Part shown: in pieces, positions 10,567 through 64,000 of the stretch | Numbering within the stretch: position 1 is the stretch's first letter | Layout of the letters: each line of letters starts with the position of its first letter | Assembly (NCBI GenBank): GCA_039738415.1 | Contig: JBCLLY010000006.1 | Span: forward strand, 1,814-65,813 | Origin: Candidatus Levyibacteriota bacterium | Lineage (GTDB): Bacteria > Patescibacteriota > Microgenomatia > Levybacterales > GWA1-39-11 | DNA: 64,000 bases | Direction: 5' to 3' | The notes under the pieces: model-generated | Told to the model about the DNA's origin: nothing | The model's input: the letters and a program-made list of their open reading frames with translations, nothing else | The model's database searches: none | Made by a program: the position numbers and the translations under genes

Positions 10567-11531
10567 AAGTGTCTCTTATCGTTACAGTTTTTAACGAGCA
10601 AGAATCGATTGAAAGGTTTTTAAATTCCGTTCTTCACCAAACAATATTTCCCAAAGAGTTAGTCATTGTCGACGGTGGATCAACTGATGAAACAGTTGAA
10701 AGAATTAAGAATTATGAATCACGAATTAAGAAAAAGGGTATAAGCCTTAATCTAATTATTAAAAAAGGCAATCGTTCTGTTGGAAGAAACGAAGCAGTTA
10801 GAAGATCATCAAACAATATAATTGCCTGTTCTGATGCAGGAAACATTTTAGAGAAAAACTGGTTAGAAAAAATAACGGAGCCGTTTAAAAACAAAAAAAT
10901 AGACGTTGTTGCCGGCTACTATAAGGGATTGCCAAAGAATAATTTTCAAAAAAGTTTAATTCCTTATGTTCTAGTGATGCCGGATAAAGTAAATCCGAAA
11001 GAATTTCTTCCGGCAACAAGGTCTATTGCATTTAGAAAGAAAATTTGGAAAAAAGTAAAAGGATTTGATGAGAAATATTCCCATAATGAAGATTATGTTT
11101 TTGGAAAAAAACTTAAGAAAATTAATGCAAACATATTTTTTGCAAAAAATGCGATAGTTAATTGGATTCCTAGAAAAAATATTAAAGAATCATTTATTAT
11201 GTTTTATAGATTTGCTTATGGTGATATCGAGGCAAAAATACTTAGACCGAAAGTAGTATTTATATTTTTTAGGTACCTATTTGTGCTTATGACAATATTA
11301 GCGGCGAAACTTATTTCAACTGAATTCCAAATTTTTGTGGGAGGATTTTATTTTTCTTTTTACTCTTTGTGGGCAGTTCAGAAAAACTTCAAATATATAA
11401 ATAACATAAGTGGATTTTACTATTTACCTCTAATCCAATACTTGTCTGATATTGCAGTTATGTCCGGCTCTTTATTGGCCTTTGCTCAAAAGTCAATAAG
11501 TATTTTGAATTCAAGAATTAAGGAAAACTAG
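10554..11531 (+). CDS. glycosyltransferase family 2 with C-terminal TM segments
   Basis: VSLIVTVFNEQESIERFL...VIVDGGSTDET, a GT2 signature. Confidence 0.8.
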   Translation: MENLKVSLIVTVFNEQESIERFLNSVLHQTIFPKELVIVDGGSTDETVERIKNYESRIKKKGISLNLIIKKGNRSVGRNEAVRRSSNNIIACSDAGNILEKNWLEKITEPFKNKKIDVVAGYYKGLPKNNFQKSLIPYVLVMPDKVNPKEFLPATRSIAFRKKIWKKVKGFDEKYSHNEDYVFGKKLKKINANIFFAKNAIVNWIPRKNIKESFIMFYRFAYGDIEAKILRPKVVFIFFRYLFVLMTILAAKLISTEFQIFVGGFYFSFYSLWAVQKNFKYINNISGFYYLPLIQYLSDIAVMSGSLLAFAQKSISILNSRIKEN

Positions 11532-35065: not shown

Positions 35066-35123
35066 TTATTTATTATACATCGAGATCCTTCTACTACGCT
35101 CAGGATGATTTTTGTTCCAAAAA

Positions 35124-39594: not shown

Positions 39595-39692
39595 TCCCGT
39601 TAAGCAGATGTAGTGTAGTGGTAACACGCCTCCTTCCCAAGGAGGAAACCGCGGGTTCGAATCCCGTCATCTGCTCACATTGCTTAACGGGA
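39595..39692 (+). mobile_element. 98-bp unit: 11-nt perfect inverted repeats (TCCCGTTAAGC / GCTTAACGGGA) enclosing tRNA-Gly(CCC)
   Basis: Left arm 39595-39605, right arm 39682-39692. The unit sits exactly where the outer tRNA is interrupted. Mobility is inferred, not shown. Confidence 0.4.
39604..39675 (+). tRNA. tRNA-Gly (CCC)
   Basis: Acceptor GCAGATG/CATCTGC, D arm GTGT-AGTGGTA-ACAC, anticodon arm CCTCC-TTCCCAA-GGAGG, T arm GCGGG-TTCGAAT-CCCGT, discriminator T. Length 72 nt, no encoded CCA. Confidence 0.9.
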
Positions 39693-39851
39693 CCAAGGAA
39701 GAGGTCGCCAGTTCAAATCTGGTCCACCGTTCTAGCATTGGCGGGCAGGCCAAGGTGTACCCTCCTTCGTATCGTTTTGACGAGACTACTGAAGGGCAAG
39801 GAAGTGAGTTGGATTCCCGCACTCGCTCTGATTACAGTTTTATAAGCAGGA

Positions 39852-39897
39852 AATCTCACAGTCAGACTTTCAAAATCAAAAGCCTGACTGTGAGATT
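39852..39897 (+). other. 14-bp perfect-stem hairpin (AATCTCACAGTCAG / CTGACTGTGAGATT) with an 18-nt loop
   Basis: Lies at the 3' end of the GC-rich tRNA-Gly region, upstream of the pyrG promoter. Possible terminator or processing site. Confidence 0.55.
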
Positions 39898-52262: not shown

Positions 52263-52466
52263 GAGAATGTATATTTTAACATTTTGAGCCTATTCTAGCC
52301 AAAAGTCAAATAAATTTGAATTTATTTGCAATGCTACGATTTGGCACAAAATCCTAAAGTCGGGTTGGAATGAGTTAAAAAAGAAGCCTTTTTCTATAAG
52401 TACCTATTGTCAATCTCAGCTTGCACTGAGCTTGCTCGCCTCGCTGAGTCGAAGCGGGCCAAAGTG

Positions 52467-52540
52467 TGAGCCGACTGGGACTCGAACCCAGAACCAAAAG
52501 CTTAAAAGGCTTTTGCTCTACCAAATTGAGCTATCGGCCC
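52467..52540 (-). tRNA. tRNA-Lys (TTT)
   Basis: Sense strand GGGCCGA-TA-GCTC...GAGC-A-AAAGC-CTTTTAA-GCTTT-TGGTT-CTGGG-TTCGAGT-CCCAG-TCGGCTC-A. No encoded CCA. Confidence 0.9.
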
Positions 52541-52688
52541 GCTCGCAATCGTATTAATATTGAAAATATTAGAAGAGCGTAACTGTAATTTTATCAAAAT
52601 TAGACCTCACACGCAATGAAGTTATTTGACAAAACATTTTATTTTTTTAATACTGTTTATAGTATATAACTGAAAGGAGGTGAATTAC

Positions 52689-53345
52689 ATGCAGGATATA
52701 AATAATACATTAATAACAACACTTAACAGTAGTATCGAGACAATTGTCACTTTTGCTCCTAAATTTGTCCTCGGCTTAATCTTTCTTTTAGTCGGTATTA
52801 TAATTGCCGCTTTCCTAAAACAAATTCTAAATGAACTATTTAGGTTTTTTAAGGTCGAGACTTATTTGGCAAAATATGGAGTCCCTGAATCAAAAGACGG
52901 GGCTCAGTGGAGTACGATAATTGCAGAAATAGCCAGATGGTTTGTGATTGTAGCCTTTCTTATTCCTACCGCAGATGTATGGGGGTTAGGGCGCTTTGCG
53001 TCAGTTCTAGACGGGTTGCTTTCATATTTACCAAATGTATTCGTGGCGGTGTTATTACTGCTTGTTGGTTTTGTAGTTTCTAGACTTGTTCACGATTTGG
53101 TTCTCGCTTCGGTACGTGGACTTTCGAAAGAATCTGCAAAATCTGTTGCACTTGTTGCCAGATATGCAGTAATAATATTTGTGTTGCTAGTAGTTTTAAA
53201 TCAGCTAGGAATAGCAACTGATTTAATAAGAATTTTATTTAGCGGGATAATTGCCATGCTAGCAATAGCAGGAGGACTCGCTTTCGGACTTGGTGGAAAA
53301 GATGCGGCAAAGGAAACAATAGAAAAACTCAGGAAAAGACTTTAA
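52689..53345 (+). CDS. membrane protein with repeated conserved TM-helix units (mechanosensitive-channel-associated TM_helix type)
   Basis: SD GGAGGTG lies 7 nt upstream of the ATG at 52689. Four hydrophobic helices with a repeating pattern. Family call is tentative. Confidence 0.5.
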   Translation: MQDINNTLITTLNSSIETIVTFAPKFVLGLIFLLVGIIIAAFLKQILNELFRFFKVETYLAKYGVPESKDGAQWSTIIAEIARWFVIVAFLIPTADVWGLGRFASVLDGLLSYLPNVFVAVLLLLVGFVVSRLVHDLVLASVRGLSKESAKSVALVARYAVIIFVLLVVLNQLGIATDLIRILFSGIIAMLAIAGGLAFGLGGKDAAKETIEKLRKRL

Positions 53346-53360
53346 AAATTCTTATTTTGG

Positions 53361-53400
53361 AAAACACACCTGGAATAATTTTGGGTGTGTTTTCTTTTTT
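53361..53400 (+). terminator. rho-independent terminator
   Basis: AAAACACACC-13 nt-GGTGTGTTTT followed by CTTTTTT. Confidence 0.8.
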
Positions 53401-53483
53401 AAGCTGTGGGATTGTAGAAAAGAGCTAATTTTAATATAATTGGCTAGATTTAATACTTGGATCTTAGGTCTTAAGTCTTTTTT

Positions 53484-53555
53484 GGCCCGTTCGTCTATCG
53501 GTTAGGACGCTAGACTTTCACTCTGGCAAGGGGGGTTCGACTCCCCCACGGGTCA
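53484..53555 (+). tRNA. tRNA-Glu (TTC)
   Basis: Acceptor GGCCCGT/ACGGGTC, anticodon arm CTAGA-CTTTCAC-TCTGG, T arm GGGGG-TTCGACT-CCCCC. No encoded CCA. Confidence 0.9.
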
Positions 53556-53621
53556 CATTTTAATCAAGGGGAGAAGAAGTTTACCCTGCTGTGCCCGCCT
53601 CTGCAGGGAGCTTGTGCAAGG

Positions 53622-53640
53622 GAGTCCCAGTCGGCTCACA
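53622..53640 (+). repeat. 19-nt copy of the tRNA-Lys 3' end (GAGTCCCAGTCGGCTCACA), att-like and inverted relative to the gene
   Basis: Exact reverse complement of 52465-52483 (T-loop to 3' end of tRNA-Lys plus 2 nt). Marks the left edge of the accessory region. Confidence 0.8.
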
Positions 53641-53711
53641 AATAGGGTTTTGGAGGTTGGATTTCAGAAGCAGATATACAAACTGACTGGCAGGAATGTA
53701 AAAAATGGAAT

Positions 53712-53891
53712 ATGGAAACAGAATCTTTACTTTTAACTGGGATTCCCGGTAAAGAGGGTATAAAAATGACGGAGGAGCAGATGGGCTATTTGAATGATTG
53801 GGATGTATGGCTTGAGGAAATGTGTATTCAGTTAGAGAAAGATAAGTCTCATATTGTAAATGAGTTTGATAGAAGGCAATTTGAAAAATAG
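53712..53891 (+). CDS. small hypothetical protein (59 aa)
   Basis: ORF METESLLLTGIPGKEG...RRQFEK, just below the track cutoff. Followed by a same-length ORF that also starts ME.ES. No SD. Confidence 0.3.
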   Translation: METESLLLTGIPGKEGIKMTEEQMGYLNDWDVWLEEMCIQLEKDKSHIVNEFDRRQFEK

Positions 53892-53897
53892 AGAAAT

Positions 53898-54077
53898 ATG
53901 GAAAGAGAATCTAAAATAACATACGAACAAATAAGTGATAGTGTGCCTATGCTTGCAGAACAAGCCTATCATTTGCATGAAGAAATTGACCTAGACGTTG
54001 AACTTAAAAGAAGGAAAGAACAAGAGGCTTGGGAACGTAGACAATATGGAAATGATATATGTGACTTCCTAATTTAA
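53898..54077 (+). CDS. small hypothetical protein (59 aa)
   Basis: ORF MERESKITYEQISDS...DICDFLI. Its last ~45 bp are duplicated in degenerate form at about 54071-54118. Confidence 0.3.
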   Translation: MERESKITYEQISDSVPMLAEQAYHLHEEIDLDVELKRRKEQEAWERRQYGNDICDFLI

Positions 54078-54434
54078 AAGAAGGAAAGATTATGCGATTT
54101 GGGAGCGTAGACAGTATTAAAAGTGATGCTTTGACTGTACTGTAGGTTCTTTAAAGCCGTCGGAAATCCCGACAAACTGAATTTTCATCCAATTCTCCCT
54201 CCAAAGGCGGGTAGACAAGAACCTTGGAATGAACCATAAATTTGCAAGTTGGCTGTAGATTAATTACTTAAATCCCAATTAATCAAGGTATTTTAAAAGA
54301 CTTAGAGAACAGCGGTGGGCTCAAATACCGCGCCGCATCTAGACATGCTTGGCTTATACGCGAGGGAATATGCCCAGTCTGATTAATTCTTCTTTTCTGA
54401 ATCCTTCCGTGAAATTTGGAGTTACTAAGGATTG

Positions 54435-55073
54435 ATGCATTCTGGCACGGTTTGTATTGCTTTTGGTTCAAATGAGGGTATAATTTCACTTATGGTCGAA
54501 AATTCTATTCATGAAAAAGCAATGCTCCTTATAAATGGGGAGCAAAGTGAGTTTGTAAGTAAAATTGAGGAAATTATTGCAATTTCTAACCTTGTTGGCA
54601 AACAAACTGAAATGGGAAATTGCGTAATGCAATCATTTCTATTAGGTGAACTTTGCTTAAAGCCTGATGTTGCAAAACAGCTCTATCCCGATCTTGGCTT
54701 AGACCAAGCATTGAAAAATACAGGATCCGTGCGTACTAACTTTAACAGTAGAGTTAAGCCACATGGACTTAAAATTGGTCAAGAACATTCTCCGACTACA
54801 TATTTTTATGAACTAATTGAACCAGCGGATAAAGTTAAAAAGAAAATTAGAGAAAAGCCTACGGAACATATACTTTCAATGCAAATGATCGCAGGAGTAA
54901 GTGTTCCACTAATTAGGGACCATAACCATCATTGGGTAATAGCCGAAGCAAACGGGCCAGTTTCTGATGGTAGATGTAAGGGTTGTGGAGAACACCGTGT
55001 ATACCGAAATTCGCTATCTGAGGAACAAATAAATCCCAACAGGAATTTCAATAGGCATTCCCGTCGAGACTAA
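54435..55073 (+). CDS. hypothetical protein with a C-terminal CxxC motif
   Basis: Long ORF. Start is uncertain (ATG at 54435 or 54492). The C-terminus DGRCKGCGEHRVY carries a single CxxC. No family recognised. Confidence 0.45.
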   Translation: MHSGTVCIAFGSNEGIISLMVENSIHEKAMLLINGEQSEFVSKIEEIIAISNLVGKQTEMGNCVMQSFLLGELCLKPDVAKQLYPDLGLDQALKNTGSVRTNFNSRVKPHGLKIGQEHSPTTYFYELIEPADKVKKKIREKPTEHILSMQMIAGVSVPLIRDHNHHWVIAEANGPVSDGRCKGCGEHRVYRNSLSEEQINPNRNFNRHSRRD

Positions 55074-55080
55074 AGGATTT

Positions 55081-55140
55081 TACCTTAAATAGTGCACCTT
55101 ACCCTTGTCAAAAGAGGGGAACAGTCCCCTTATTTGAGTA
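55081..55140 (+). repeat. intergenic repeat family T, copy 1 (27-nt core TACCTTAAATAGTGCACCTTACCCTTG plus hairpin AGGGGA-ACAG-TCCCCT and a T-rich tail)
   Basis: The core is identical to 56972-56998. The second half is similar to 57024-57053. Terminator-like hairpin at 55115-55130. Confidence 0.8.
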
Positions 55141-55286
55141 GCATATCGACTCCATCTTCATTCCTCGCTTAAGGAAATGAATTTAGTGATAAAATTGCAG
55201 ATGTGAGGACTTATCAATCCTCTGGTGAAATTTACCCATTCGGTATTCTAAATATTCAAGATTATTGAATATAAACTAACATACGT

Positions 55287-55796
55287 ATGCAAATAAAATT
55301 AAAAAGACCAACTCTTCCGACTCTATTATTAATTCTAGTTGTCTGTGTCCTTGCGATAATTTCCATATTTCTTTTTGCTGCTAATAAAAAAAATGGGGAT
55401 TGGAAGACTTACATCAATTACCGTTTCAATTATTCAATTAGCTACCCAAAAGATTGGAAAGAAGGCAGAGTAGCAACAAATGGCGACGGTAGAGCATTAT
55501 ATAAAGACAATTCTAATGAAATCTTAGTTTACGCAAGCTATATGCTTTGGTCCTTTTCTCAGCAAGATGCTCCAATTGAACGTAATATATTTACTACAAC
55601 TAGTGGAATAAGAGCAACATCTCTTAAAGAAACGAAGAATGGAAAAGTTAAATATATTGTATTTTTTACACTGAAAAATAAAAAGGATAATAACTTAGAA
55701 ACTCAATACGTTTTTAATGTAAATGTAACTGAAAAGTTTTTTAAAGCTAATGAACAAATTATTATTAAAGTTGCTAAAAGTCTCTCGCTTAATTAA
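55287..55796 (+). CDS. membrane-anchored hypothetical protein
   Basis: N-terminal TM (LPTLLLILVVCVLAIISIFLF) followed by a soluble domain beginning WKTYINYRFNYSISYPKDW. Confidence 0.5.
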   Translation: MQIKLKRPTLPTLLLILVVCVLAIISIFLFAANKKNGDWKTYINYRFNYSISYPKDWKEGRVATNGDGRALYKDNSNEILVYASYMLWSFSQQDAPIERNIFTTTSGIRATSLKETKNGKVKYIVFFTLKNKKDNNLETQYVFNVNVTEKFFKANEQIIIKVAKSLSLN

Positions 55797-55918
55797 TGGA
55801 AATAGATTGTAAACCTGCTTTGACTTAAATAAATAAAATTATAGAAAAAATTATTAAGAGAGTTAAACATGCATATTGCTTTATATATCAAGTGGATTTA
55901 TATATATAATAAAGCTAA

Positions 55919-56824
55919 ATGAGATCAAAAAAACATATTCTTATTATTGTACTGCTTGGACTATTAGTTGTTGCCGGATACCTTATTATTTCAAGAAACA
56001 AACCCTCCAAAATAGTTAAAACTACTCCCCCAATTACTGAAAGTAAATTTGAAGATGTTAAAGCCGATCTGAATGGTGATGGAAATCAGGAGACGCTTCG
56101 CTTGTCGTATACCAACTCAGAAAGGGAACCTGTTGTATCCCTAATTGCTTTAGATAAAAATGGAAAGGAAATAGGCAAGCTTCCAACAAGTATGCCAATT
56201 AAGGTACCTATGCCTAAAAGTGGAAAAGTACACACCCCTGTTAAAAAAGACAAAAATCAATTTGTAAGTTTTGATTTTTCCGTAGGTCCCCATTCTTCTG
56301 AAACAATGTTTTTTGGTCTTTTTCAACTTAAGACTGGTGGTATGGGAGTTTTACCTATATGTCTTACCGACAATGTAAATGGAGCCTCAGATTGCCTATT
56401 TTGGTCAGGAGAGGTTGGAGAACTAGCTGCTAAAGACTTAGACAATGATGGAAACTTAGAAGTTATAGAAATAGTTGATGAATATCCTAAAGATGGTCAA
56501 ATAACTACTGACACAGAAAAGATAATTAATGATGAATTTAAAGATATGGGTCAAGATGCGGTAAGTGGAATGACTAGAATTGCTAAACGCGAGCAGGGCG
56601 ATAGGGGCAATAAGGTTGTTTGGGGAATATATAAATTTAATGGAGAATATTTCAAAGAGCAGACAGGTAAAAATTACGATAGATACTATGACTTGGTAAG
56701 TAAGCACTTGAAGGCAACATATCCCAACTACCCGACAATAATGAAAAGGAATAGTATGAGCAAAGATTCTTTAGACTACAACTTGTCTATGCGACAGTTT
56801 TGGACCCATAGCGGCGGAAATTAG
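55919..56824 (+). CDS. membrane-anchored or secreted hypothetical protein with DxDxDG-type Ca-binding-like motifs
   Basis: N-terminal TM, then DLNGDGNQE and DLDNDGNLEV motifs (FG-GAP/EF-hand-like). Confidence 0.5.
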   Translation: MRSKKHILIIVLLGLLVVAGYLIISRNKPSKIVKTTPPITESKFEDVKADLNGDGNQETLRLSYTNSEREPVVSLIALDKNGKEIGKLPTSMPIKVPMPKSGKVHTPVKKDKNQFVSFDFSVGPHSSETMFFGLFQLKTGGMGVLPICLTDNVNGASDCLFWSGEVGELAAKDLDNDGNLEVIEIVDEYPKDGQITTDTEKIINDEFKDMGQDAVSGMTRIAKREQGDRGNKVVWGIYKFNGEYFKEQTGKNYDRYYDLVSKHLKATYPNYPTIMKRNSMSKDSLDYNLSMRQFWTHSGGN

Positions 56825-56971
56825 ACAACAATCGTAATAACTCAAGAATACCTGATAGCTTCACTTTTTTACTCACAAAAATTACTGCTTTAATTTTCAC
56901 TAGAAGCTCAAATGATTCGCAGAATCTTAAACTTTACCCCAAATACTCCTTGACTTACCTCAAACACTCCT

Positions 56972-57053
56972 TACCTTAAATAGTGCACCTTACCCTTGCA
57001 CTTCGGAGATCTCAGTGTAAACAAAAAGAGGGGCGCAGTCCTTTATGTGAGTA
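56972..57053 (+). repeat. intergenic repeat family T, copy 2 (with a 24-nt internal insertion)
   Basis: 27-nt core identical to copy 1. The tail AAAAGAGGGGCGCAGTCCTTTATGTGAGTA is a degenerate version. Confidence 0.8.
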
Positions 57054-57166
57054 CTTTTGTTCGTTTATTCGAACAATTGGTATAGAAAAGCTATTAATCT
57101 AATGGTTCGATATATTAGAACAATTGTTTTAGGTTTCTAGTTTTAAGTTTTACGTTTATTCTCCAG

Positions 57167-57341
57167 CCTCAGGAGAATACATTTTATTCTATCGTTTGAA
57201 TGGATGGTTTTGTTTAGTCTAATGTTTCGATACATTAGACTGGGTGTTTGAATTTATTTGGGAGTAGAGGTGAGGCCTCTATTCAGTTTATCTCAGGATT
57301 TGGGTTTCATTGGTGAAAAGGTCTCACCTCTACACGGTAAT
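57167..57341 (+). repeat. 175-bp direct repeat R, copy 1 (two internal hairpins)
   Basis: 169 of 175 positions identical to 60428-60602. Hairpin 1 at 57216-57241 (10-bp perfect stem AGTCTAATGT/ACATTAGACT, loop TTCGAT). Hairpin 2 at 57264-57333 (14-bp stem GTAGAGGTGAGGCC/GGTCTCACCTCTAC). Confidence 0.9.
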
Positions 57342-57359
57342 TTGTATTATAATTTTTAT

Positions 57360-57581
57360 ATGCCGATTATATTTTCTGATCACGCAAAACAGCAGTTGAG
57401 AAGAAGGAAAATACCCCAAAAATTAGTAATTGAAACAATTAAAAACTTTGAGGGTAAAGGCGCAAGTTTTAAGGAGCGTAAGTTGCGGCAAAAGACGTTT
57501 GGTGATAAAATATTGGAGGTGGTAACAAAGACCGAAGGATCAAAAGTAACGGTTATTACAGGTTACTATATTAATAAATAA
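57360..57581 (+). CDS. DUF4258-like protein (putative toxin of a two-gene TA-like pair)
   Basis: MPIIFSDHAKQQLRRRKIP... The ATG at 57360 sits 6 nt after TATAAT (57348-57353). The longer track ORF reads through repeat R. Confidence 0.6.
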   Translation: MPIIFSDHAKQQLRRRKIPQKLVIETIKNFEGKGASFKERKLRQKTFGDKILEVVTKTEGSKVTVITGYYINK

Positions 57582-57583
57582 TT

Positions 57584-57784
57584 ATGAAAATGAGATACGA
57601 TAAAAAAGTAGATGCAGTCTACATTGAATTGGCAAAAGGCTTATATGATAGTTCGCGCAAAGTGTCTGATGTGATTGTGGTGGATGAAGATAAAAAGGGA
57701 AAAGTTTTGGGAATAGAAATTTTGGATGCCTCTAAAAATATTAATGCATTTGACCCAAAATCTATATCTGTAGCTACCTCCTAG
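57584..57784 (+). CDS. DUF2283-like protein (putative antitoxin partner)
   Basis: YDKKVDAVYIELAKG...GKVLGIEILDASKNI pattern. Starts 2 nt after the upstream stop. Confidence 0.6.
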   Translation: MKMRYDKKVDAVYIELAKGLYDSSRKVSDVIVVDEDKKGKVLGIEILDASKNINAFDPKSISVATS

Positions 57785-57827
57785 TTTTTTTATTCAAGCC
57801 TTAATTTGTAACGAATACAATCTCAAC

Positions 57828-57887
57828 AAAATTCGCATCCCAGCCTTGACTAGACCGCCGAGTCTAGGCGGGCCAGCTACAGGAAAG
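57828..57887 (+). repeat. junction repeat J, copy 1
   Basis: AAAATTCGCATCCCAGCC-TTGACTAGACCGCCGAGTCTAGGCGGGCCAGCT-ACAGGAAAG. Confidence 0.85.
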
Positions 57888-57935
57888 TATATCTAGTATT
57901 CAATATGAGCGTGCGAGTGTAGTGGTTGCACAGAT

Positions 57936-57959
57936 GTATGATATATCGATATATCATAC
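57936..57959. promoter_or_regulatory. 24-nt perfect palindrome GTATGATATATCGATATATCATAC
   Basis: Exactly self-complementary. Intergenic, about 160 bp upstream of the KilA-N gene. Operator-like. Confidence 0.5.
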
Positions 57960-58067
57960 AGACAAGATGGGTAAATGGGGGGAAGTGAAACTCTTTTACG
58001 TAGAGGTTTTACTTTTATATAAACATAACACGCTGAGGGTTGATGACTAAATTCTAAAAATAGTAAT

Positions 58068-58204
58068 CCAGCCTCAGGAGTGATAATATAAATAAATCAG
58101 ACAAAGCCTTTTAAATTATGAAAAGTAAAAAAATAGAAGTGAAAGGAATTGTAATTGCCACATTTAGCAAAAACGAAAAAGACTATATTTCCCTGACTGA
58201 TATG
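58068..58204 (+). repeat. 137-nt exact duplication, copy 1 (KilA-N upstream region plus first 29 codons)
   Basis: Identical to 62098-62234. Confidence 0.9.
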
Positions 58205-58945
58205 GCAAAGTTTAAATCCTATGATAGTGGAATAGTCATTGCTAATTGGCTGTCAACAAAATACACAATTCAGTTTATGGGAGCTTGGGAACAATTACAT
58301 AATCCGAATTTTAATCTTATTGAATTCCATAAGATTAAAAGTGAAGCTGGATCAAATGGATTTATTGTTTCATCCTCATTTTGGATCAAACAAACTAAGG
58401 CAATTGGAATTATCTCAAGTGCAGGTAGATATGGGGGAACTTATGCCCATAAAGATATTGCTTTTGAGTTTGCAACCTGGCTTTCTCCAGAGTTCAAACT
58501 TTTTCTTATTAAAGAATTCCAAAGACTTAAGGCAGAAGAAAGTGAGCGGCTTGAATTGGGTTGGGATTTGAAAAGAACATTGGCAAAAATTAATTACCGT
58601 ATTCACACAGATGCGATTAAAGAGCATCTCATCCCACCAAAAATTTCTCAAAAATCAACTCAAATCATTTACGCCACTGAGGCAGATGTATTAAATGTAG
58701 CTTTGTTTGGAATAACAGCAAGAATATGGCGTGATCAAAATCCAAAAAGGGAGGGGAACATCCGAGACTATTCTACTGTAGAGCAACTGGTAGTACTCTC
58801 AAACCTTGAAGGAATGAATGCGGAATTTATCCGACAAGGACTATCTCAAAGCGCGCGACTAGTAAGACTTAATATAAATGCAATTTCTCAAATGAAGTCA
58901 CTTCTTGGAAACCCAGCGGTGAAAAAGTTAGAAAAACAAAAATAG
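58118..58945 (+). CDS. KilA-N domain-containing protein
   Basis: ISLTDMAKF...GRYGGTYAHKDIAFEFATWLSPEFKLFLIKEFQRLK, typical of the KilA-N family often found near restriction-modification loci. Confidence 0.8.
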   Translation: MKSKKIEVKGIVIATFSKNEKDYISLTDMAKFKSYDSGIVIANWLSTKYTIQFMGAWEQLHNPNFNLIEFHKIKSEAGSNGFIVSSSFWIKQTKAIGIISSAGRYGGTYAHKDIAFEFATWLSPEFKLFLIKEFQRLKAEESERLELGWDLKRTLAKINYRIHTDAIKEHLIPPKISQKSTQIIYATEADVLNVALFGITARIWRDQNPKREGNIRDYSTVEQLVVLSNLEGMNAEFIRQGLSQSARLVRLNINAISQMKSLLGNPAVKKLEKQK

Positions 58946-58948
58946 TAT

Positions 58949-58997
58949 CTCAGCCTCGACTAGACCGCCGAGTCTAGGCGGGCCAGCCACCGGAAAC
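58949..58997 (+). repeat. junction repeat J, copy 2
   Basis: CTCAGCC-TCGACTAGACCGCCGAGTCTAGGCGGGCCAGCC-ACCGGAAAC. Begins 4 nt after the KilA-N stop. Confidence 0.85.
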
Positions 58998-59006
58998 AGT
59001 TTTAAT

Positions 59007-59042
59007 ACGGAGAAGGTGTACCCCCAAATCACGGAGAAGGTG
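59007..59042 (+). promoter_or_regulatory. 12-nt perfect direct repeat ACGGAGAAGGTG x2 (24-nt period) upstream of a promoter
   Basis: Copies at 59007-59018 and 59031-59042. Possible regulator-binding sites. Confidence 0.4.
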
Positions 59043-59065
59043 AAATATCCGTCTTATACAAAGTG

Positions 59066-59093
59066 TTGAAATAATCTTAACTCATAGTATAAT
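59066..59093 (+). promoter_or_regulatory. sigma70-type promoter TTGAAA-N16-TATAAT driving a leaderless transcript of the 231-aa ORF
   Basis: -35 at 59066-59071, -10 at 59088-59093. The ATG at 59099 is 5 nt after the -10 hexamer. Confidence 0.6.
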
Positions 59094-59098
59094 GCGGT

Positions 59099-59794
59099 AT
59101 GAGTAATTTTAGAGAGGAAATGGACAAAGCAAGAAGGGCTGCTGAAGAAGCAAGTAGAAATAATCAAAAAAAAGTTGAAAAGTCAGAGTTGGATGTCAAT
59201 TCATGGGGATATCTCTGGAAAAAAAAGGAATTGCAAAAAGACTATCAGGGGATATATATAGAAAATGTTATAGTGCCAGTCATAGCAGAGGTGAGGCAAG
59301 TTTTAAACGAACAAAGAAAGGGAGATGAATGGTCAAGCAAAAGAGTGCAAGACCATGTTGACTTTAGAATCAACTGGCCAGGGGGTGACGGTGCTGAAGG
59401 GGCTGACCCACATACACAACACTATCATGAAATATTTGATGGCGTATTACTTACACAAGTACAAAAAACTGGACTGTTACGTAGACCAGTTGTACTACAA
59501 ATATTTTCCGGCTTTACTCAAGATGTACGGGAAGGCAGTGATATTTCACATACCGTTTTAATTAGGGCTGCATTAAGTTCTGATAGAAATAGATGTGCTG
59601 TTGAGCTAGGACAAAATCCAATTGATAGCAGTTATTATTGGATTCCGGGAAATAATGCTTGGATTCATCAAGTAGAACATAGTATTGAAAATATAATATC
59701 ACCATCCTCAGAAGTGGCTTCTAATGAGATGAGTAGACTACGTTCTCATCTTTCATCCATTGTTGTTTCTCTCCAAGGAAAAGGAAATATGTAG
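59099..59794 (+). CDS. hypothetical protein (231 aa), no recognised family
   Basis: Long ORF with a charged coiled-coil-like N-terminus. Locally more GC-rich than its surroundings. Confidence 0.5.
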   Translation: MSNFREEMDKARRAAEEASRNNQKKVEKSELDVNSWGYLWKKKELQKDYQGIYIENVIVPVIAEVRQVLNEQRKGDEWSSKRVQDHVDFRINWPGGDGAEGADPHTQHYHEIFDGVLLTQVQKTGLLRRPVVLQIFSGFTQDVREGSDISHTVLIRAALSSDRNRCAVELGQNPIDSSYYWIPGNNAWIHQVEHSIENIISPSSEVASNEMSRLRSHLSSIVVSLQGKGNM

Positions 59795-59812
59795 ATGGAG
59801 TATGTATAAATG

Positions 59813-59870
59813 AATTCGCATACCAGCCTCGACTAGACCGTCGAGTCTAGGCGGGCCAGCCACCGGAAAT
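59813..59870 (+). repeat. junction repeat J, copy 3
   Basis: AATTCGCATACCAGCC-TCGACTAGACCGTCGAGTCTAGGCGGGCCAGCC-ACCGGAAAT. Confidence 0.85.
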
Positions 59871-60061
59871 TTGTCCAGTTTGATCTAGTTGTTAATAGTT
59901 GACACTACAAATATAGTGGTTTAACATAATTTTGGATACTACATAGCAGCGGAATAGGAGAAGGAGATATGGGAAGAGTTTTTACATTTGAAATCACAGC
60001 ACCAAGGACGCACAAAAGCGACGGAGGTGTTTTTTTGTGGTTATTCTTATGAAAGGAGGTG

Positions 60062-60337
60062 ATGAAAATGAAAGAAAAAAAACAAAGTCAGGAAGTCCAA
60101 ATTAATTTCGATTTTGGTGCAGAACCAATTTTGTATACTGACTCAATTTTTATTACATCAAATGAAGATGGAATAATTATTAACTTCAGTCAACCTCAAG
60201 CCATTCCTACACAACAGAAAGTTGTAGCAAGAATAGGTATGAGTCGGGAACATGCCAAAAAGTTCATTCAAAAAATTAGCAATTTATTTGCTATTACTGA
60301 AAATAATAAGCAAATTGGTCAAAAGTCCCAGAATTAA
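60062..60337 (+). CDS. DUF3467-like protein
   Basis: ILYTDSIFITSNEDGIIINFSQ...KVVARIGMSREHAKKFIQKISNL resembles the DUF3467 pattern. SD AAAGGAGGTG upstream. Confidence 0.55.
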   Translation: MKMKEKKQSQEVQINFDFGAEPILYTDSIFITSNEDGIIINFSQPQAIPTQQKVVARIGMSREHAKKFIQKISNLFAITENNKQIGQKSQN

Positions 60338-60342
60338 CCTAG

Positions 60343-60370
60343 AGCCGGCTGGGAGAAATCCCACTCGGCT
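60343..60370 (+). other. hairpin AGCCG-gct-GGGA-GAAA-TCCC-act-CGGCT with a GNRA tetraloop
   Basis: Follows the DUF3467 stop. Its 5' arm contains GGCTGGGA, the reverse complement of the junction-motif core TCCCAGCC. Confidence 0.6.
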
Positions 60371-60427
60371 TGCTCCATTTCTGATCATAACAAAAAAATA
60401 AGGAAATTAAAATAATTAGGAAACTGA

Positions 60428-60602
60428 CCTCAAGAGAATACATTTTATTCAATCGTTTGAATGGATGGTTTTGTTTAGTCTAATGTTTCGATACATTAGA
60501 CTGGGTGTTTGAATTTATTTAGGAGTAGAGGCGAGACCACTATTCAGTTTATCTCAGGATTTGGGTTTCATTGGTGAAAAGGTCTCACCTCTACACGGTA
60601 AT
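60428..60602 (+). repeat. 175-bp direct repeat R, copy 2
   Basis: Six mismatches relative to 57167-57341. Same orientation, same length. Confidence 0.9.
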
Positions 60603-60644
60603 ATAGTGCTATGTGGATGGCCGAGGTTTTGGTTTCTTTAGATT

Positions 60645-61502
60645 TTAACTCCAGCTTTCCCCAAGATATTGAACAAGTAATTCGCGCAGTCGTTCTCCGC
60701 CAATAAGTTCAACATTGTTAACTTTCGCTAGCTGAATGGCTTCTGGAGTGAAATATGAGGTAGTAACAACCATAGCGCGCGTGCAATTATAAAGTTTTAA
60801 TGCAGTACTAGCTTCTTGCACCGCAGAATTACCAACGGATCCTGTATAGCACTTTGCTTGCACAACAACCCTTTCTGAGCCCATATTCACAACTAAATCA
60901 CAACCCTGATCACCAGTTTTACCTGTTTTCATAGCAGAGTATCCCATCGCTTCATATAATTTACATAAAAGAACTTCAAATTCAGTACCCGTTAATTGGC
61001 TAGTTGTATGAGGTATGCTTGCGATGCTGTCGCGGACAAATTTATCCTCTTTATTATAAATGTAATGCTTAAGTAGCAAGCTAATATCTTTATAGTCGTC
61101 CATAGAGAGTTTGACACCTTTGTCATGTAGCGCTTTTCTGAAGATTTCTAGCTGCTGCCATGTGAACGAGAACTCTCCGTCTTTCCATAAATCTTTTCCT
61201 GCCTTTTTTTGATAGCCAAGACTGTTTATAAAGTTTTTTATATTTTCATCAGCTCCAGCTTGTTTAACTGAATCAAGCAAATCTGATATTTTCTTCTTTT
61301 GTCTCTTTGATTGAAAATCATGCCATGCATAAATTCCAATCACTATGAGAACAAGTGCTATTGCGCCACCCCAAAGCAAGACAAAAAAAAGGGAGTTATT
61401 GGTTTTAAAAAGAGATACTAAATAAAAAGTAGCCAATACAAAAATAAAAAATATTATTTTTGCTAATGTGTAATCATTATTCCTATATCTCCCTCGAGCC
61501 AT
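60645..61502 (-). CDS. membrane-anchored restriction endonuclease-like protein (Mrr_cat-type PD-(D/E)xK domain)
   Basis: The ATG at 61500-61502 (MARGRYRNNDY) is preferred. Two N-terminal TM helices. C-terminus FEVLLCKLYEAMGY...GDQGCDLVV...VVQAKCY... Confidence 0.7.
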   Translation of the reverse strand: MARGRYRNNDYTLAKIIFFIFVLATFYLVSLFKTNNSLFFVLLWGGAIALVLIVIGIYAWHDFQSKRQKKKISDLLDSVKQAGADENIKNFINSLGYQKKAGKDLWKDGEFSFTWQQLEIFRKALHDKGVKLSMDDYKDISLLLKHYIYNKEDKFVRDSIASIPHTTSQLTGTEFEVLLCKLYEAMGYSAMKTGKTGDQGCDLVVNMGSERVVVQAKCYTGSVGNSAVQEASTALKLYNCTRAMVVTTSYFTPEAIQLAKVNNVELIGGERLRELLVQYLGESWS

Positions 61503-61646
61503 ATAATAATAGTAGCACATTTTTCTTAAGGACTGAAAGGAGCAATTAACAAAATTAAATGGGAATTCGCAAAATTCGCATCCCAGAATCAGGAGTGGTA
61601 GAATAGAGTTCATCGAATTAATGTTTAATAAGAAAATTAAAAATAT

Positions 61647-62090
61647 ATGGAAAAAATCAATCTATTCGACCTAAAAACACTACTCAAGGGAAGGGATTGG
61701 GCAGACTTGACGAAGCAGGAACGGTTGGAAATCTCCCAAAAAATATTAGACCTGATTTCACAGGATTAGCCAAGTTTGTAAACGAAAATCCTCAAGGATT
61801 TACTATCAACATAAATGGAGTACCAGCCACTAAGGGTTTTGTGGTATCACCTTACAAGGGTAGGGAAACTATTCTTGAAATAGTAGATGAGAATTCTATC
61901 AGAGATTTTATATCAAAAAACATAGATTTATTACAACAAGAAGGTAATTTTTTTGGAGGATGGAAAAATTCAAAGGGAAAATTCTAGATATTATGGAAGG
62001 GCAGGTAAAATATTATCCCAACGGGAAAATTTTTGATACCAATGACCCTAACCACAACAGAAGCTTGGAAATTTTAATTAGAAGCAAAAT
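61647..62090 (+). pseudogene. fragmented gene: three consecutive ORF pieces in different frames
   Basis: Pieces are MEKINLFDLKTLLKGRDWADLTKQERLEISQKILDLISQD*, then ...FVNENPQGFTININGVPATKGFVVSPYKGRE...FFGGWKNSKGKF*, then MEGQVKYYPNGKIFDTNDPNHN.... Consistent with frameshift and nonsense decay. Confidence 0.35.
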
Positions 62091-62097
62091 TCGCATC

Positions 62098-62234
62098 CCA
62101 GCCTCAGGAGTGATAATATAAATAAATCAGACAAAGCCTTTTAAATTATGAAAAGTAAAAAAATAGAAGTGAAAGGAATTGTAATTGCCACATTTAGCAA
62201 AAACGAAAAAGACTATATTTCCCTGACTGATATG
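62098..62234 (+). repeat. 137-nt exact duplication, copy 2
   Basis: Identical to 58068-58204. Confidence 0.9.
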
Positions 62235-62490
62235 CTGCGGGCTAAAGATGGTGATTTCTTTATTTCTGATTGGTTGAGAAATAGGAATACAGTTGAATTC
62301 ATTGGTATATGGGAAAAGTTGAATAATCCGAATTTTAATTATGGCGAATTTGCCATAATTAAAAGTCAGGTAGGATTAAACAGCTACAAGATTAGTGTTA
62401 AAGAGTGGGTCGTGTAATACTTAATCTTACACAATCTCTCAAATGAAGTCACTTATCGGGAACCCAGCAGTGAAAAAGTTAGAAAACCGG
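62148..62490 (+). pseudogene. KilA-N gene remnant (mosaic with an internal deletion)
   Basis: The first 29 codons are identical to the 58118 copy. These are followed by a divergent KilA-N N-domain (WLRNRNTVEFIGIWEKLNNPNF), a premature stop at 62415-62417, then the out-of-frame C-terminal tail (QMKSLIGNPAVKKLE). Confidence 0.7.
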
Positions 62491-62548
62491 AATTCGTAAT
62501 CCAGCCTCGACTAGACCGTCGAGTCTAGGCGGGCCAGCCTCAGGAAAG
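62491..62548 (+). repeat. junction repeat J, copy 4
   Basis: AATTCGTAATCCAGCC-TCGACTAGACCGTCGAGTCTAGGCGGGCCAGCC-TCAGGAAAG. Lies immediately upstream of hsdR. Confidence 0.85.
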
Positions 62549-62582
62549 TGGAATTTAAGTTCAAGAAGTGGTAGAATAAATC

Positions 62583-64000
62583 ATGATATTTAACGAAAAC
62601 ACTAGGGTAAAGATTCCTGCATTGATTCATTTGACACGACTTGGCTATCTTTATTTTTCATTGAAAGATCAAAATTACGAAGTCGATCCAGACACAAATA
62701 TTATTACGAACGTACTAACTAGAAAGATCAAAGAACTTAATCCTGATGCTACGGATGAATCTGTTATCCAAGAATTGCAGAATATTAAAGAAGAACTAAA
62801 TTATGATGATTTAGGAAGAGCGTTTTATAAGCGTTTAATTGGAGATGGGGATGGGAGCCTAAAACTTATAGAGTGGGATAAGTTTGGTAATAATTTGTTT
62901 CATGTGACTTCAGAGTTAACGTGCAAGAGTGGGGAAGATGAATTCCGGCCCGATATTACAATCTTTATTAATGGACTACCCCTCTCATTTATAGAGGTAA
63001 AGAAGCCCAATAACCCAGAAGGTATTAAGGCTGAGCGAGATCGTATAAATGTTCGTTTCAAAAATGACAAATTTCGACGATTTATCAATGCCACACAGCT
63101 GATTGTTTTCTCCAATAACATGGAATACGACGATACCGACACTAACAAACTTCAAGGTGCATTTTATGCAACCACTGCAAAAAACACGGATACAAAATTT
63201 AACAACTTACGTGAGCAAAAAAGGTCTGAATTTATAGATGAGATTAAAGCCATAGATGAGCGTATAGAGGATTTTATTCTCTTAGATAATAACTGCAGGA
63301 TTATTAAGCATTCTCCTGAATTCTTGTCTAACAAAGATATAGACACCCCGACCAATCGAATTTTATCGTCGTTGTTTAGTATGTTCAGGCTAAGAGATCT
63401 GCTTAAATATGGGATCTGTTATGTCGACGAAGTTGAGGAAAATACAGGCAAAGTAACTATAGAAAAACAAGTCATGAGGTATCCTCAGTTTTTTGCCACC
63501 AAAGCAATTAAGACTAAGCTTGACGAAGGTATGAAAAGGGGTGTGATTTGGCACACTCAGGGTTCAGGTAAAACAGCTTTATCCTTTTACAACGTTCATT
63601 CACTTAAAGATTATTTTGCCAAAAATGGAGTGATTCCTAAGTTCTATTTTGTAGTTGATCGTCTTGATCTTGCTACACAAGCAAAAGAAGAATTTAGCAA
63701 GCGTGGAATGACAACAAATACTATTGATAGCAAGGAAGCATTACTTGAAGACTTTAAAAATAATACCTCAACGGAAGGTATTACTGTTTTAAATATCCAC
63801 AAATTTCGAGAAGATACTATGGCACTTGATGACAGTGGATACAATATAAATTTACAACGCATATTCTTCATTGACGAAGCTCATCGTAGTTATGATCCAA
63901 AGGGTTCTTTCTTGGCAAATCTTTACAGCTCAGACAAAAATTCCATAAAAATAGCTCTTACAGGCACACCACTAATTATCTATAAAGATCATGATGATCG
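62583..64000 (+). CDS. hsdR: type I restriction enzyme R subunit (N-terminal part, continues beyond window)
   Basis: Not in the ORF track because there is no stop within the window. Nuclease motif FRPDITIFINGLPLSFIEVKKP, helicase Walker A WHTQGSGKT and DEAH box FIDEAHRS. Confidence 0.9.
   Translation, partial: MIFNENTRVKIPALIHLTRLGYLYFSLKDQNYEVDPDTNIITNVLTRKIKELNPDATDESVIQELQNIKEELNYDDLGRAFYKRLIGDGDGSLKLIEWDKFGNNLFHVTSELTCKSGEDEFRPDITIFINGLPLSFIEVKKPNNPEGIKAERDRINVRFKNDKFRRFINATQLIVFSNNMEYDDTDTNKLQGAFYATTAKNTDTKFNNLREQKRSEFIDEIKAIDERIEDFILLDNNCRIIKHSPEFLSNKDIDTPTNRILSSLFSMFRLRDLLKYGICYVDEVEENTGKVTIEKQVMRYPQFFATKAIKTKLDEGMKRGVIWHTQGSGKTALSFYNVHSLKDYFAKNGVIPKFYFVVDRLDLATQAKEEFSKRGMTTNTIDSKEALLEDFKNNTSTEGITVLNIHKFREDTMALDDSGYNINLQRIFFIDEAHRSYDPKGSFLANLYSSDKNSIKIALTGTPLIIYKDHDD

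Follow-up and report, generated by a model that had tools for sequence, protein, structure and literature searches.

We examined a 64,000-nt stretch of contig JBCLLY010000006.1 from a Candidatus Levyibacteriota bacterium (the window), in which a transfer RNA (tRNA) gene for lysine and one for glutamate enclose a membrane protein gene, with an accessory region to their right. Part of tRNA-Lys is repeated, in inverted orientation, beside tRNA-Glu, and this partial copy and the sequences around it are our subject. The tRNA-Lys(UUU) gene is on the minus strand, at 52466-52540 by ARAGORN and at 52467-52540 in the Rfam tRNA match (72.1 bits); the latter is also the position given in an earlier, sequence-only reading of this DNA. 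On the plus strand follow the membrane protein gene (218/221 amino acids, 52680/52689-53345; PF05552, mechanosensitive-channel transmembrane helix, Pfam E=1.4e-12), the core gene of what we presume to be a flipped block, and tRNA-Glu(UUC) (53484-53556; ARAGORN and Rfam), the last conserved core feature on the right side.

By exact match search, the 19-mer GAGTCCCAGTCGGCTCACA is present at exactly two sites in the window, 52465-52483 on the minus strand and 53622-53640 on the plus strand, identical at 19/19 positions. No further match was found in the 64 kb, even with 3 mismatches allowed, and there were 0 matches in 100 dinucleotide-preserving shuffles of the window, which rules out a chance origin of the pair. 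The inverted 19-nt copy of the tRNA-Lys 3′ end that the sequence-only reading had pointed out is thus confirmed; in a repeat search of the window, the pair is an inverted repeat with arms 1138 nt apart. The minus-strand 19-mer consists of the last 18 nt of tRNA-Lys and 1 nt more, its final A (52465) already lying outside the tRNA. It runs from T-loop position 57 through the 3′ strand of the T stem and the 3′ strand of the acceptor stem to the discriminator base and 2 further nt, and its first bases are the GAGT of the T-loop TTCGAGT. The plus-strand 19-mer (53622-53640) is called copyK below. A hidden tRNA, transfer-messenger RNA, or other known RNA at 53557-53640 was considered and rejected; ARAGORN finds only four tRNAs in the window, and Rfam, at gathering and at E-value thresholds, gives nothing relevant.

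An element family behind tRNA genes of relatives

Relatives of the window were gathered via the membrane protein, giving 80 related loci (cited here by L numbers) from Candidatus Levybacteria, within the Candidate Phyla Radiation (CPR), and from other Microgenomates. In six of them (L004, L006, L011, L021, L024, and L042), tRNA-Lys is followed by an element of ~85-100 nt that is made up of a left half (LH), a right half (RH), and a copy of the tRNA 3′ end. LH reads ACTTCGGCAAGCTCAGTG...CTGAGATTG.CGAAGT in these relatives and RH reads GGGATGAGAAGTTTACCCTGAGCG.AGTCGAAGG, after which the tRNA 3′ copy begins within the T-loop. L004 has the unit in tandem. The intact layout is a tRNA gene, LH (ACTTCGGCAAGCTCAG..., directly after the tRNA 3′ end), an optional GIY-YIG gene, RH, and the tRNA 3′ copy. 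The optional gene is seen in L051 and L024: behind tRNA-Glu, LH and RH flank an open reading frame (ORF) of 96-98 amino acids, and 17 nt of the tRNA-Glu end are repeated after RH. This ORF is a GIY-YIG nuclease (PF01541, E ~1e-16); in the PDB, it comes closest to 1ywl and 1zg2, both UPF0213 proteins, and to SLX1.

Most of the family consists of ORF-less miniatures of 45-100 nt, which are abundant and often tandem; they are internal deletions that retain the last codons of the ORF (CTGAGTTTGTCGAAGT). In elements with an LH, this half repeats the RH core imperfectly and in inverted orientation, so that the element has imperfect terminal inverted repeats. Some RH modules have no LH and stand after a terminator hairpin or ~10 nt after a tRNA. 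In L085, the order is LH, two small genes (61 and 107 amino acids), and a degenerate RH, an arrangement that suggests elements with other cargo. Rfam holds no family for the RH/LH element, and we found no description of it in the searchable literature; the family is widespread and apparently undescribed. Its members are found in Levybacteria and also in other genomes known from metagenomes.

A metagenome scan with the RH consensus pattern (TGAGAAGTTTAYNCTGAN{7,8}GAAG) returned at least 120 loci (contigs L092-L211) and, at the matches listed, to which the survey counts refer throughout, at least 136 RH sites, 130 of them scorable and 6 cut by contig ends. RH is a conserved motif of ~30 nt (consensus TGAGAAGTTTACCCTGAGCGAAGTCGAAGG), nearly invariant across 14 tRNA identities, and nearly all of the 130 scorable sites are followed by tRNA-3′-like sequence, in most cases a copy of the tRNA 10-80 nt upstream, which may have almost any identity. 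A same-strand tRNA lies within 700 nt upstream at 88 sites; in 58 of these, the copy and the tRNA 3′ end are identical over at least 15 nt, and the remainder are mostly 1 or 2 bases off. Among the tRNAs that precede elements, at least 14 amino-acid identities are represented. Distances between the tRNA end and RH fall into two clusters, 9-18 nt and 41-82 nt, and longer spacings hold GIY-YIG ORFs or tandem units; such an ORF lies upstream of 10 of the 130 RH sites. Tandem periods are 60-65 nt or ~100 nt (e.g., L165, with three units, and L093, L101, L108, and L112). At 29 RH sites, there is no tRNA within 700 nt upstream, though upstream sequence is present, so relocated RH modules are common; many of the tRNA-less sites are preceded by only 4 to 7 nt of acceptor-like sequence.

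Conserved structure of the right half

The structure of RH was analyzed in an ungapped alignment of 99 sites (A2). An inner stem pairs YNCT with AGN′R′ (columns 26-29 and 42-45); it is 99.5% paired, with exchanges of CG to UA, AU, and GU, and RNAalifold recovers it unaided. An outer stem is formed by columns 7-14 and 48-55. Its 5′ strand lies just upstream of TGAGAAG, and its 3′ strand is the start of the copy, that is, the last T-loop base and the 3′ strand of the T stem. Paired cells make up 85.4%, compared to 71.2 ± 0.8% after shuffling and 32-58% with the partners slid, and double-change cells number 224, compared to 92. Given that the paired columns are outside the search pattern or at degenerate positions, this covariation is not a selection artifact. 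The outer stem tracks the tRNA, with a mean of 5.45 bp compared to 3.81 ± 0.10 bp with shuffled partners. Therefore, the copy represents a whole T-arm in which a conserved insert of 33 nt stands where the 5′ part of the loop would be; the 3′ strand of the acceptor stem comes next, and identity to the tRNA begins at T-loop position 57. Hammerhead, k-turn, and other known ribozyme readings of the RH core found no Rfam support and were discarded.

Two element halves in the window

The window carries one half of such an element at each of the two tRNAs. LH occupies 52407-52465 on the minus strand (ACTTTGG..CAAGCTCAGTGCAAGCTGAGATTGACAA) and aligns with LH of the intact elements behind tRNA-Lys in the six relatives. 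It starts at the first base 3′ of tRNA-Lys (...GGCTCAC/ACTTTGG...CAAGCTCAGTGCAAGCTGAG), contains a private 24-nt insertion, and is truncated within the 3′ strand of its own outer stem; nhmmer matches it at 52408-52435 (E=0.02). RH lies at 53568-53621 on the plus strand, as delimited by a covariance model (R1) and by alignments to intact elements, and RH with copyK (53568-53640) begins 11 nt after tRNA-Glu. RH comprises, in order, what remains of the T-stem-like 5′ strand (GGGGA), AGAAGAAGTTTACCCTG, a 19-nt insertion private to the window, and GAGCTTGTGCAAGG, and then comes copyK; the bases before copyK (GGGGAGAAGAAGTTTACCCTG...GAGCTTGTGCAAGG) are a degenerate RH. In the core, AGAAGAAG stands where the family has TGAGAAG (a mutated UGAG), and 4 bp are left of the outer stem (GGGA:TCCC), the 5′ strand of which is cut by the breakpoint proposed below. 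The model R1 was built from the metagenomic sites alone, and its E values are only roughly calibrated; its best match in the whole window, on both strands, is at 53563-53638 (+), with 16.3 bits and an E of ~0.06, over the full model length and ending on the 19-mer.

The surroundings of copyK fit the family in several ways. Its boundaries, from T-loop position 57 to the tRNA 3′ end, agree with those of the tRNA copies at metagenomic RH sites, and its position relative to RH is that seen at the 130 scorable sites. The window RH, in turn, sits where the family rule predicts, beside a tRNA 3′ copy with family boundaries. When the two halves are joined, they are collinear in alignment with the intact Lys elements, with ~8 nt missing at the joint and the two private insertions. 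The window copy is an ORF-less miniature, like ~92% of the RH sites among the matches listed. Judged from its sequence context, then, the plus-strand 19-mer is the terminal tRNA-3′ repeat of a decayed, ORF-less member of the RH/LH (GIY-YIG) element family.

Could copyK and its neighborhood instead be a functional RNA, for instance, a minihelix resembling a tRNA 3′ end that serves in processing a transcript, or an RNA antisense to the 3′ end of tRNA-Lys? The compensatory changes and G-U tolerance in RH, and the strong sequence conservation in ORF-less copies, are what one would want to see in that case. In the window, on the other hand, the copy is degenerate (the 4-bp outer stem, the 19-nt insertion, and the mutated core) and apart from its tRNA, and no Rfam family exists, and we consider a functional RNA here very improbable.

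The sequence-only reading had described copyK as an attL/attR scar of integrase-mediated insertion. What stands of this is that a mobile element left copyK as its footprint, the sequence coming from the 3′ end of tRNA-Lys; the integrase part does not stand, as copyK is preceded by RH and the left half lies beside tRNA-Lys. That an island targeting the tRNA-Lys 3′ end left this scar, with its integrase flipping the 1.1 kb between the copies, would be in keeping with the use of tRNA-Lys as a genuine integration site in relatives (L051) and with an island that begins right after the 19-mer, is without homologues in relatives, and has its far end outside the window; an island integrase could in principle also have used copyK as a target. 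Yet copyK is embedded in an RH module, the homology breakpoints are not at the 19-mers, no recombinase is present among the island ORFs scanned, and no further 19-mer exists with up to 3 mismatches. The only two copies of the tRNA-Lys end in the 64 kb are inverted, not direct, repeats. A direct repeat of the tRNA-Glu 3′ end, the mark of an island at that tRNA, is likewise absent from the window. We therefore regard the integrase model as improbable. The earlier statement that the window has no integrase agrees with the Pfam search, in which no recombinase family matched in the 14 ORFs scanned to the right of 53640 nor in the left flank, not every ORF of the window having been scanned.

A classical island does occupy the same tRNA-Lys in L051 (782-9577). 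There, the ORF of a large serine recombinase (553 amino acids) extends into the tRNA gene, and the tRNA end recurs 8.6 kb away as a direct repeat of 20 nt, without an RH motif; the cargo includes an M23 peptidase and a 970-amino-acid beta-helix protein.

Gene order around the two tRNAs in relatives

The order tRNA-Lys(-)/membrane gene(+)/tRNA-Glu(+) of the window is found in 67 of the 80 related loci, most of the others being cut by contig ends. Closest to the window are L087 and L001 (membrane protein identity, 86% and 84%, respectively), and in both the order is ruvCAB, a P-type ATPase gene, greA, the gene for a penicillin-binding protein (PBP1), tRNA-Lys(-), the membrane gene, tRNA-Glu(+), an 87-amino-acid gene(-), dus(-), and, further on, pgm and pgi. 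The window has the left side of this order in common with them; after tRNA-Glu, where close relatives carry the 87-amino-acid gene and dus, it has the island instead. The flank 3′ of tRNA-Glu is different in every relative, and that 3′ of tRNA-Lys also varies. Both tRNA ends are therefore hot spots. In L074, ruvB is on the tRNA-Glu side, and so the block has been flipped elsewhere in the clade.

A locus that carries the identical 19-mer pair is L081 (GCA_039731645.1), which is the same strain. No other relative among the 80 loci has a tRNA-Lys copy after tRNA-Glu, and conservation of the 19-mer among relatives is thereby ruled out; the alternative raised in the sequence-only reading, of relatives sharing the 19-mer in a conserved non-island context, finds no example beyond this one strain.

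Three loci from one sample (L083, L084, and L085), with an identical membrane protein, have three different flanks on the tRNA-Lys side. In L085, dus and the 87-amino-acid gene are present both on the tRNA-Lys side, where they are 100% identical to the reverse complement of the right end of L083, and on the tRNA-Glu side; this may be either a population inversion polymorphism or a chimeric contig. In L087, a similar sequence of ~30 nt, TAACTTT(A)GCTAAAGCTAYAGATAGCARGC, is found at both tRNA 3′ flanks (9610-9648 and 10855-10890). The two copies are inverted repeats around the block of tRNA-Lys, membrane gene, and tRNA-Glu, and they may belong to a diverged type of LH and serve as a substrate for inversion of the block.

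An inversion as the probable origin of the split element

The window LH (minus strand) and RH with copyK (plus strand, behind a different tRNA) are neither contiguous nor on the same strand, unlike the halves of intact elements. We favor, with moderate confidence, the reading that one mini-element behind tRNA-Lys was torn apart by an inversion of 52407-53567 (1161 bp). At the start, the mini-element would have stood behind tRNA-Lys, with the gene end and the copy as direct repeats ~120 nt apart. The inversion would have broken it in the middle, with the second breakpoint 11 nt after tRNA-Glu; LH would have remained with tRNA-Lys, and RH and copyK would have landed beside tRNA-Glu on the other strand. 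Some 8 nt would have been lost, with a 3-nt microhomology (TTG/CAA) at the junctions.

The left junction is placed at 52406/52407, where homology to intact elements stops (PBP-side flank ...GTACCTA/TTGTCAATC..., the latter being the reverse complement of the LH end). The right junction is placed at 53567/53568, where the covariance model and the RH alignment begin (tRNA-Glu and ATTTTAATCAA/GGGGAGAAGAAG...); TTG/CAA is common to both. The predicted junction before the inversion is CAAGCTGAGATTGACAAAGT-N(5)-CTGGGGAGAAGAAG, in the order tRNA-Lys(+)-LH-RH-copyK-AATAGGG. An inversion splitting one element explains the inverted copies, the 1.1-kb distance, and the presence of one half at each tRNA. 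Since the present orientation is the usual one in relatives (67/80), the flip would have brought the block back to the common orientation.

A flip of the DNA between the copies had also been proposed from the sequence alone, by recombination between inverted att copies. The flip remains the best explanation; the mechanism does not, as the breakpoints at 52406/52407 and 53567/53568 are not at the 19-mers. Indeed, the flipped segment includes only one of the two 19-mers, and so the flip was not a recombination between them. Homologous recombination between full elements at tRNA-Lys and tRNA-Glu was ruled out on paper, because it would leave copyK on the PBP side. The flanks at the two junctions, compared with those of relatives, gave no informative homology.

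Several observations weigh against the inversion, against the identification of the halves, or against the homing mechanism considered below. In L001 and L087, the closest relatives, the PBP gene adjoins tRNA-Lys as it does in the window today. A single inversion thus implies an earlier state with tRNA-Glu next to the PBP gene, i.e., two flips in the lineage, which is not far-fetched given L074 and the possibly chimeric L085. The un-inverted arrangement was found on no contig, and a metagenome scan for RH with copyK, in any arrangement, gave 0 matches. In L085, LH lies directly behind tRNA-Lys without an adjoining RH, a degenerate RH following ~950 nt further; partial elements therefore arise without inversion. 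The window RH is weak on its own (R1 E ~0.06, nhmmer E=0.39), the R1 match being marginal because of the 19-nt insertion and the mutated UGAG. A GIY-YIG gene is not apparent in the window, with no significant tblastn match to the nucleases of L051 and L024. In ~10-15% of elements (L042, L006, L158, and others), the copy differs from the adjacent tRNA, and a simple homing model in which the copy is the displaced end of the host gene does not explain this; within the genome set, L042 has a Glu-like copy behind tRNA-Lys, and the copy in L006 is likewise nonmatching. Last, two independent truncations might have produced complementary halves by luck, which as a rough estimate we would call improbable or, at best, unlikely.

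The last point can be put as a fuller history without any inversion, the main rival to our reading. The element behind tRNA-Lys would have lost its RH by deletion, and a separate RH with copyK would have reached its place after tRNA-Glu either by ectopic insertion or with the island from a related strain with the same tRNA-Lys 3′ end. Remnants of both kinds are common, LH-only as in L085 and orphan RH-only as in the 29 tRNA-less sites, and the window itself holds further relics at 35086-35105 and 56999-57022. The tRNA-Lys 3′ end is identical in all close relatives, so copyK need not be local, and the two-flip requirement is avoided. These points have to be set against halves that are complementary, non-overlapping, and together nearly complete (~8 nt missing), that lie 1.1 kb apart around the source tRNA, and that have TTG/CAA at both junctions. 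No donor arrangement for an independent RH with copyK was seen in the metagenome scan or in the comparison of junction flanks with relatives. We consider such independent remnants somewhat unlikely, and a single element split by inversion remains the reading that we prefer.

Possible mechanism and relation to known systems

The anatomy of the elements, together with the GIY-YIG domain, suggests a homing-type mechanism, in which we have low to moderate confidence. We imagine that the T-loop of tRNA genes, which is universally conserved, would be cut by a small GIY-YIG nuclease specific for structure or sequence and that the element would enter between T-loop positions 56 and 57. It would be copied in with its own T-loop-3′/T-stem/acceptor end. 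Because the element brings a replacement 3′ end, the tRNA would stay intact; the displaced host 3′ end would remain downstream as the copy, where the T-stem-like strand would pair with it around the RH core. Once reconstituted, the T-loop would still be targetable, which would explain tandem arrays. Homing does not account for everything. It leaves unexplained the conservation of RH in ORF-less copies, the covariation of the outer stem, and the foreign tRNA copies, and these gaps leave room for a functional RNA/DNA module and for recombination between elements at different tRNAs. One can envision a more far-reaching version, which we think unlikely. RH would be a functional, structured RNA/DNA module of undescribed selfish elements that target tRNA T-loops; the nuclease (~96 amino acids, SLX1/UPF0213-like, GIY-YIG) would recognize the universal T-arm by its structure or with the help of RH; and the RH stem would covary with the target like an internal guide. 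Such elements would spread across CPR genomes, into tRNA genes of nearly every identity, and recombination between their copies would drive local rearrangements like that in the window.

By analogy, the RH/LH family appears akin to homing-endonuclease elements by which the 3′ end of the host gene is duplicated. In the mitochondrial atp6 gene of Allomyces and other fungi, a GIY-YIG ORF has reportedly replaced and displaced the gene 3′ end, leaving a pseudo-copy downstream. As with free-standing homing-endonuclease genes, there is a small GIY-YIG gene, insertion into a conserved gene, a host kept intact via a 3′ duplication, a displaced downstream copy, and no integrase or transposase. Unlike them, the RH/LH family targets the T-loops of tRNA genes of almost any identity, has a structured RH that re-pairs with the displaced T-stem strand as well as imperfect terminal inverted repeats, and abounds in ORF-less miniatures of 45-100 nt in tandem arrays. 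Its nuclease is UPF0213/SLX1-like, not I-TevI/Seg-like, and cleavage is putative. A looser analogue is SegB of phage T4, a GIY-YIG enzyme in a tRNA gene cluster (PMC2330249).

Other comparisons go less far. Islands and prophages at tRNAs, with tyrosine or large serine integrases, also have a 17- to 20-nt tRNA 3′ repeat that starts in the T-loop and marks a variable region, and the same tRNA-Lys is used in L051. The RH/LH family, however, is without an integrase, its repeat lies, in intact elements, ~100 nt and not kilobases from the gene, RH and LH are not integrase arm sites, and in the window the repeat is inverted. Miniature inverted-repeat transposable elements (MITEs) resemble the family in being ORF-less internal deletions of an ORF-bearing form, with imperfect terminal inverted repeats, many copies per metagenome, and tandem or nested insertions. 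Here, in contrast, a DDE transposase is absent, the flanking repeat (17-19 nt) comes from a specific functional gene instead of being a short target duplication of fixed length, and the element carries a tRNA-derived stem that covaries with the target. Invertible segments of the Hin/Gin type and shufflons are likewise short and bounded by inverted sequences, and the orientation of the block varies among relatives (L074). In the window, though, there is no invertase gene nearby among the ORFs scanned, and the inverted repeats are not at the breakpoints; the loss of ~8 nt, with a microhomology of only 3 nt, points to a one-off illegitimate event, not a programmed switch.

For annotation, this locus is a trap: a partial tRNA copy beside an island is not automatically an integrase att site. 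If homing on the universal T-loop is true, selfish DNA would have a novel means of exploiting tRNA genes without killing them, and the elements would give rise to rearrangement hot spots in reduced CPR genomes. The elements would then also be a practical marker for misassemblies and for variability of tRNA flanks.

The accessory island and further relics

The accessory island covers at least 10.4 kb (53641-64000, + strand; Pfam and six-frame translation) and continues past the window. That the DNA to the right of 53640 is accessory, with the 19-mer at its edge, had been noted before and holds; the conserved core, though, extends no farther than the tRNA-Glu 3′ end (53556) and stops short of 53640. 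The island contains two paralogous 59-amino-acid ORFs, secreted proteins, a toxin-antitoxin-like pair (DUF4258/DUF2283), KilA-N (twice), an Mrr-like endonuclease, the 5′ part of an hsdR-like ORF, and repeated junction motifs. Homologues of its proteins were found in none of the 80 related loci. The 59-amino-acid ORFs open the island in tandem (53712-53891 and 53898-54077), neither with a Pfam match, and at the end of the second is a 52-nt direct repeat, 79% identical (54001-54052 and 54071-54122). The Mrr-like gene, for an Mrr-type endonuclease, lies at 60645-61613 (-), and a long ORF (62583-64000, +) that runs off the right end of the window is HsdR-like by eye, i.e., like the R subunit of a type I restriction enzyme. 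With this ORF, the Mrr-like gene, and the toxin-antitoxin-like pair, the region looks like a defense island.

Two long direct repeats, each 97% identical, are present in the island, one of 175 nt (57167-57341 and 60428-60602) and one of 149 nt (58056-58204 and 62086-62234). The second duplicates the start of the KilA-N gene, whose truncated second copy is at 62148-62417. Probably because of these two repeats, the assembly of L081 breaks at ~58.4 kb.

Relics that recall the element family are scattered in the window. An RH inner-stem module (TCCTGAGCGTAGTAGAAGGA) is intergenic at 35086-35105 (-), and an LH-like sequence (CACTTCGGAGATCTCAGTGTAAAC) lies in the island at 56999-57022 (+), adjoining an exact 28-nt repeat (55080-55107 and 56971-56998). 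Downstream of tRNA-Gly(CCC), at 39677-39880, are two fragments like the 3′ halves of other tRNAs, GGTCGCCAGTTCAAATCTGGTCCACCG and GGATTCCCGCACTCGCTC, the latter with a GAAG-rich stretch before it; they may be further decayed elements of the RH/LH kind.

The modules of the island are joined recurrently by a junction motif, ..TTCGCATCCCAGCC/TCAGGAG..., which runs in the same direction as the plus-strand 19-mer. Its long form is at 57825-57886, 58935-58996, 59808-59869, and 62486-62547, and its short form is at 57160-57180, 58054-58090, 61569-61605, and 62084-62120. The likeness of this motif to the 19-mer, which had been suggested earlier, is weak. TTCGCATCCCAGCC fits the T-loop/T-stem, being 1 mismatch from that of tRNA-Lys of other Levybacteria (TTCGAATCCCAGCC), but no acceptor part follows; there is thus only a hint, at the sequence level, of a possible tRNA origin for the motif. 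In four copies of the motif, a 27-nt hairpin (TCGACTAGACCGCCGAGTCTAGGCGGG) is inserted with a duplication of CCAGCC(T), like a tiny MITE.

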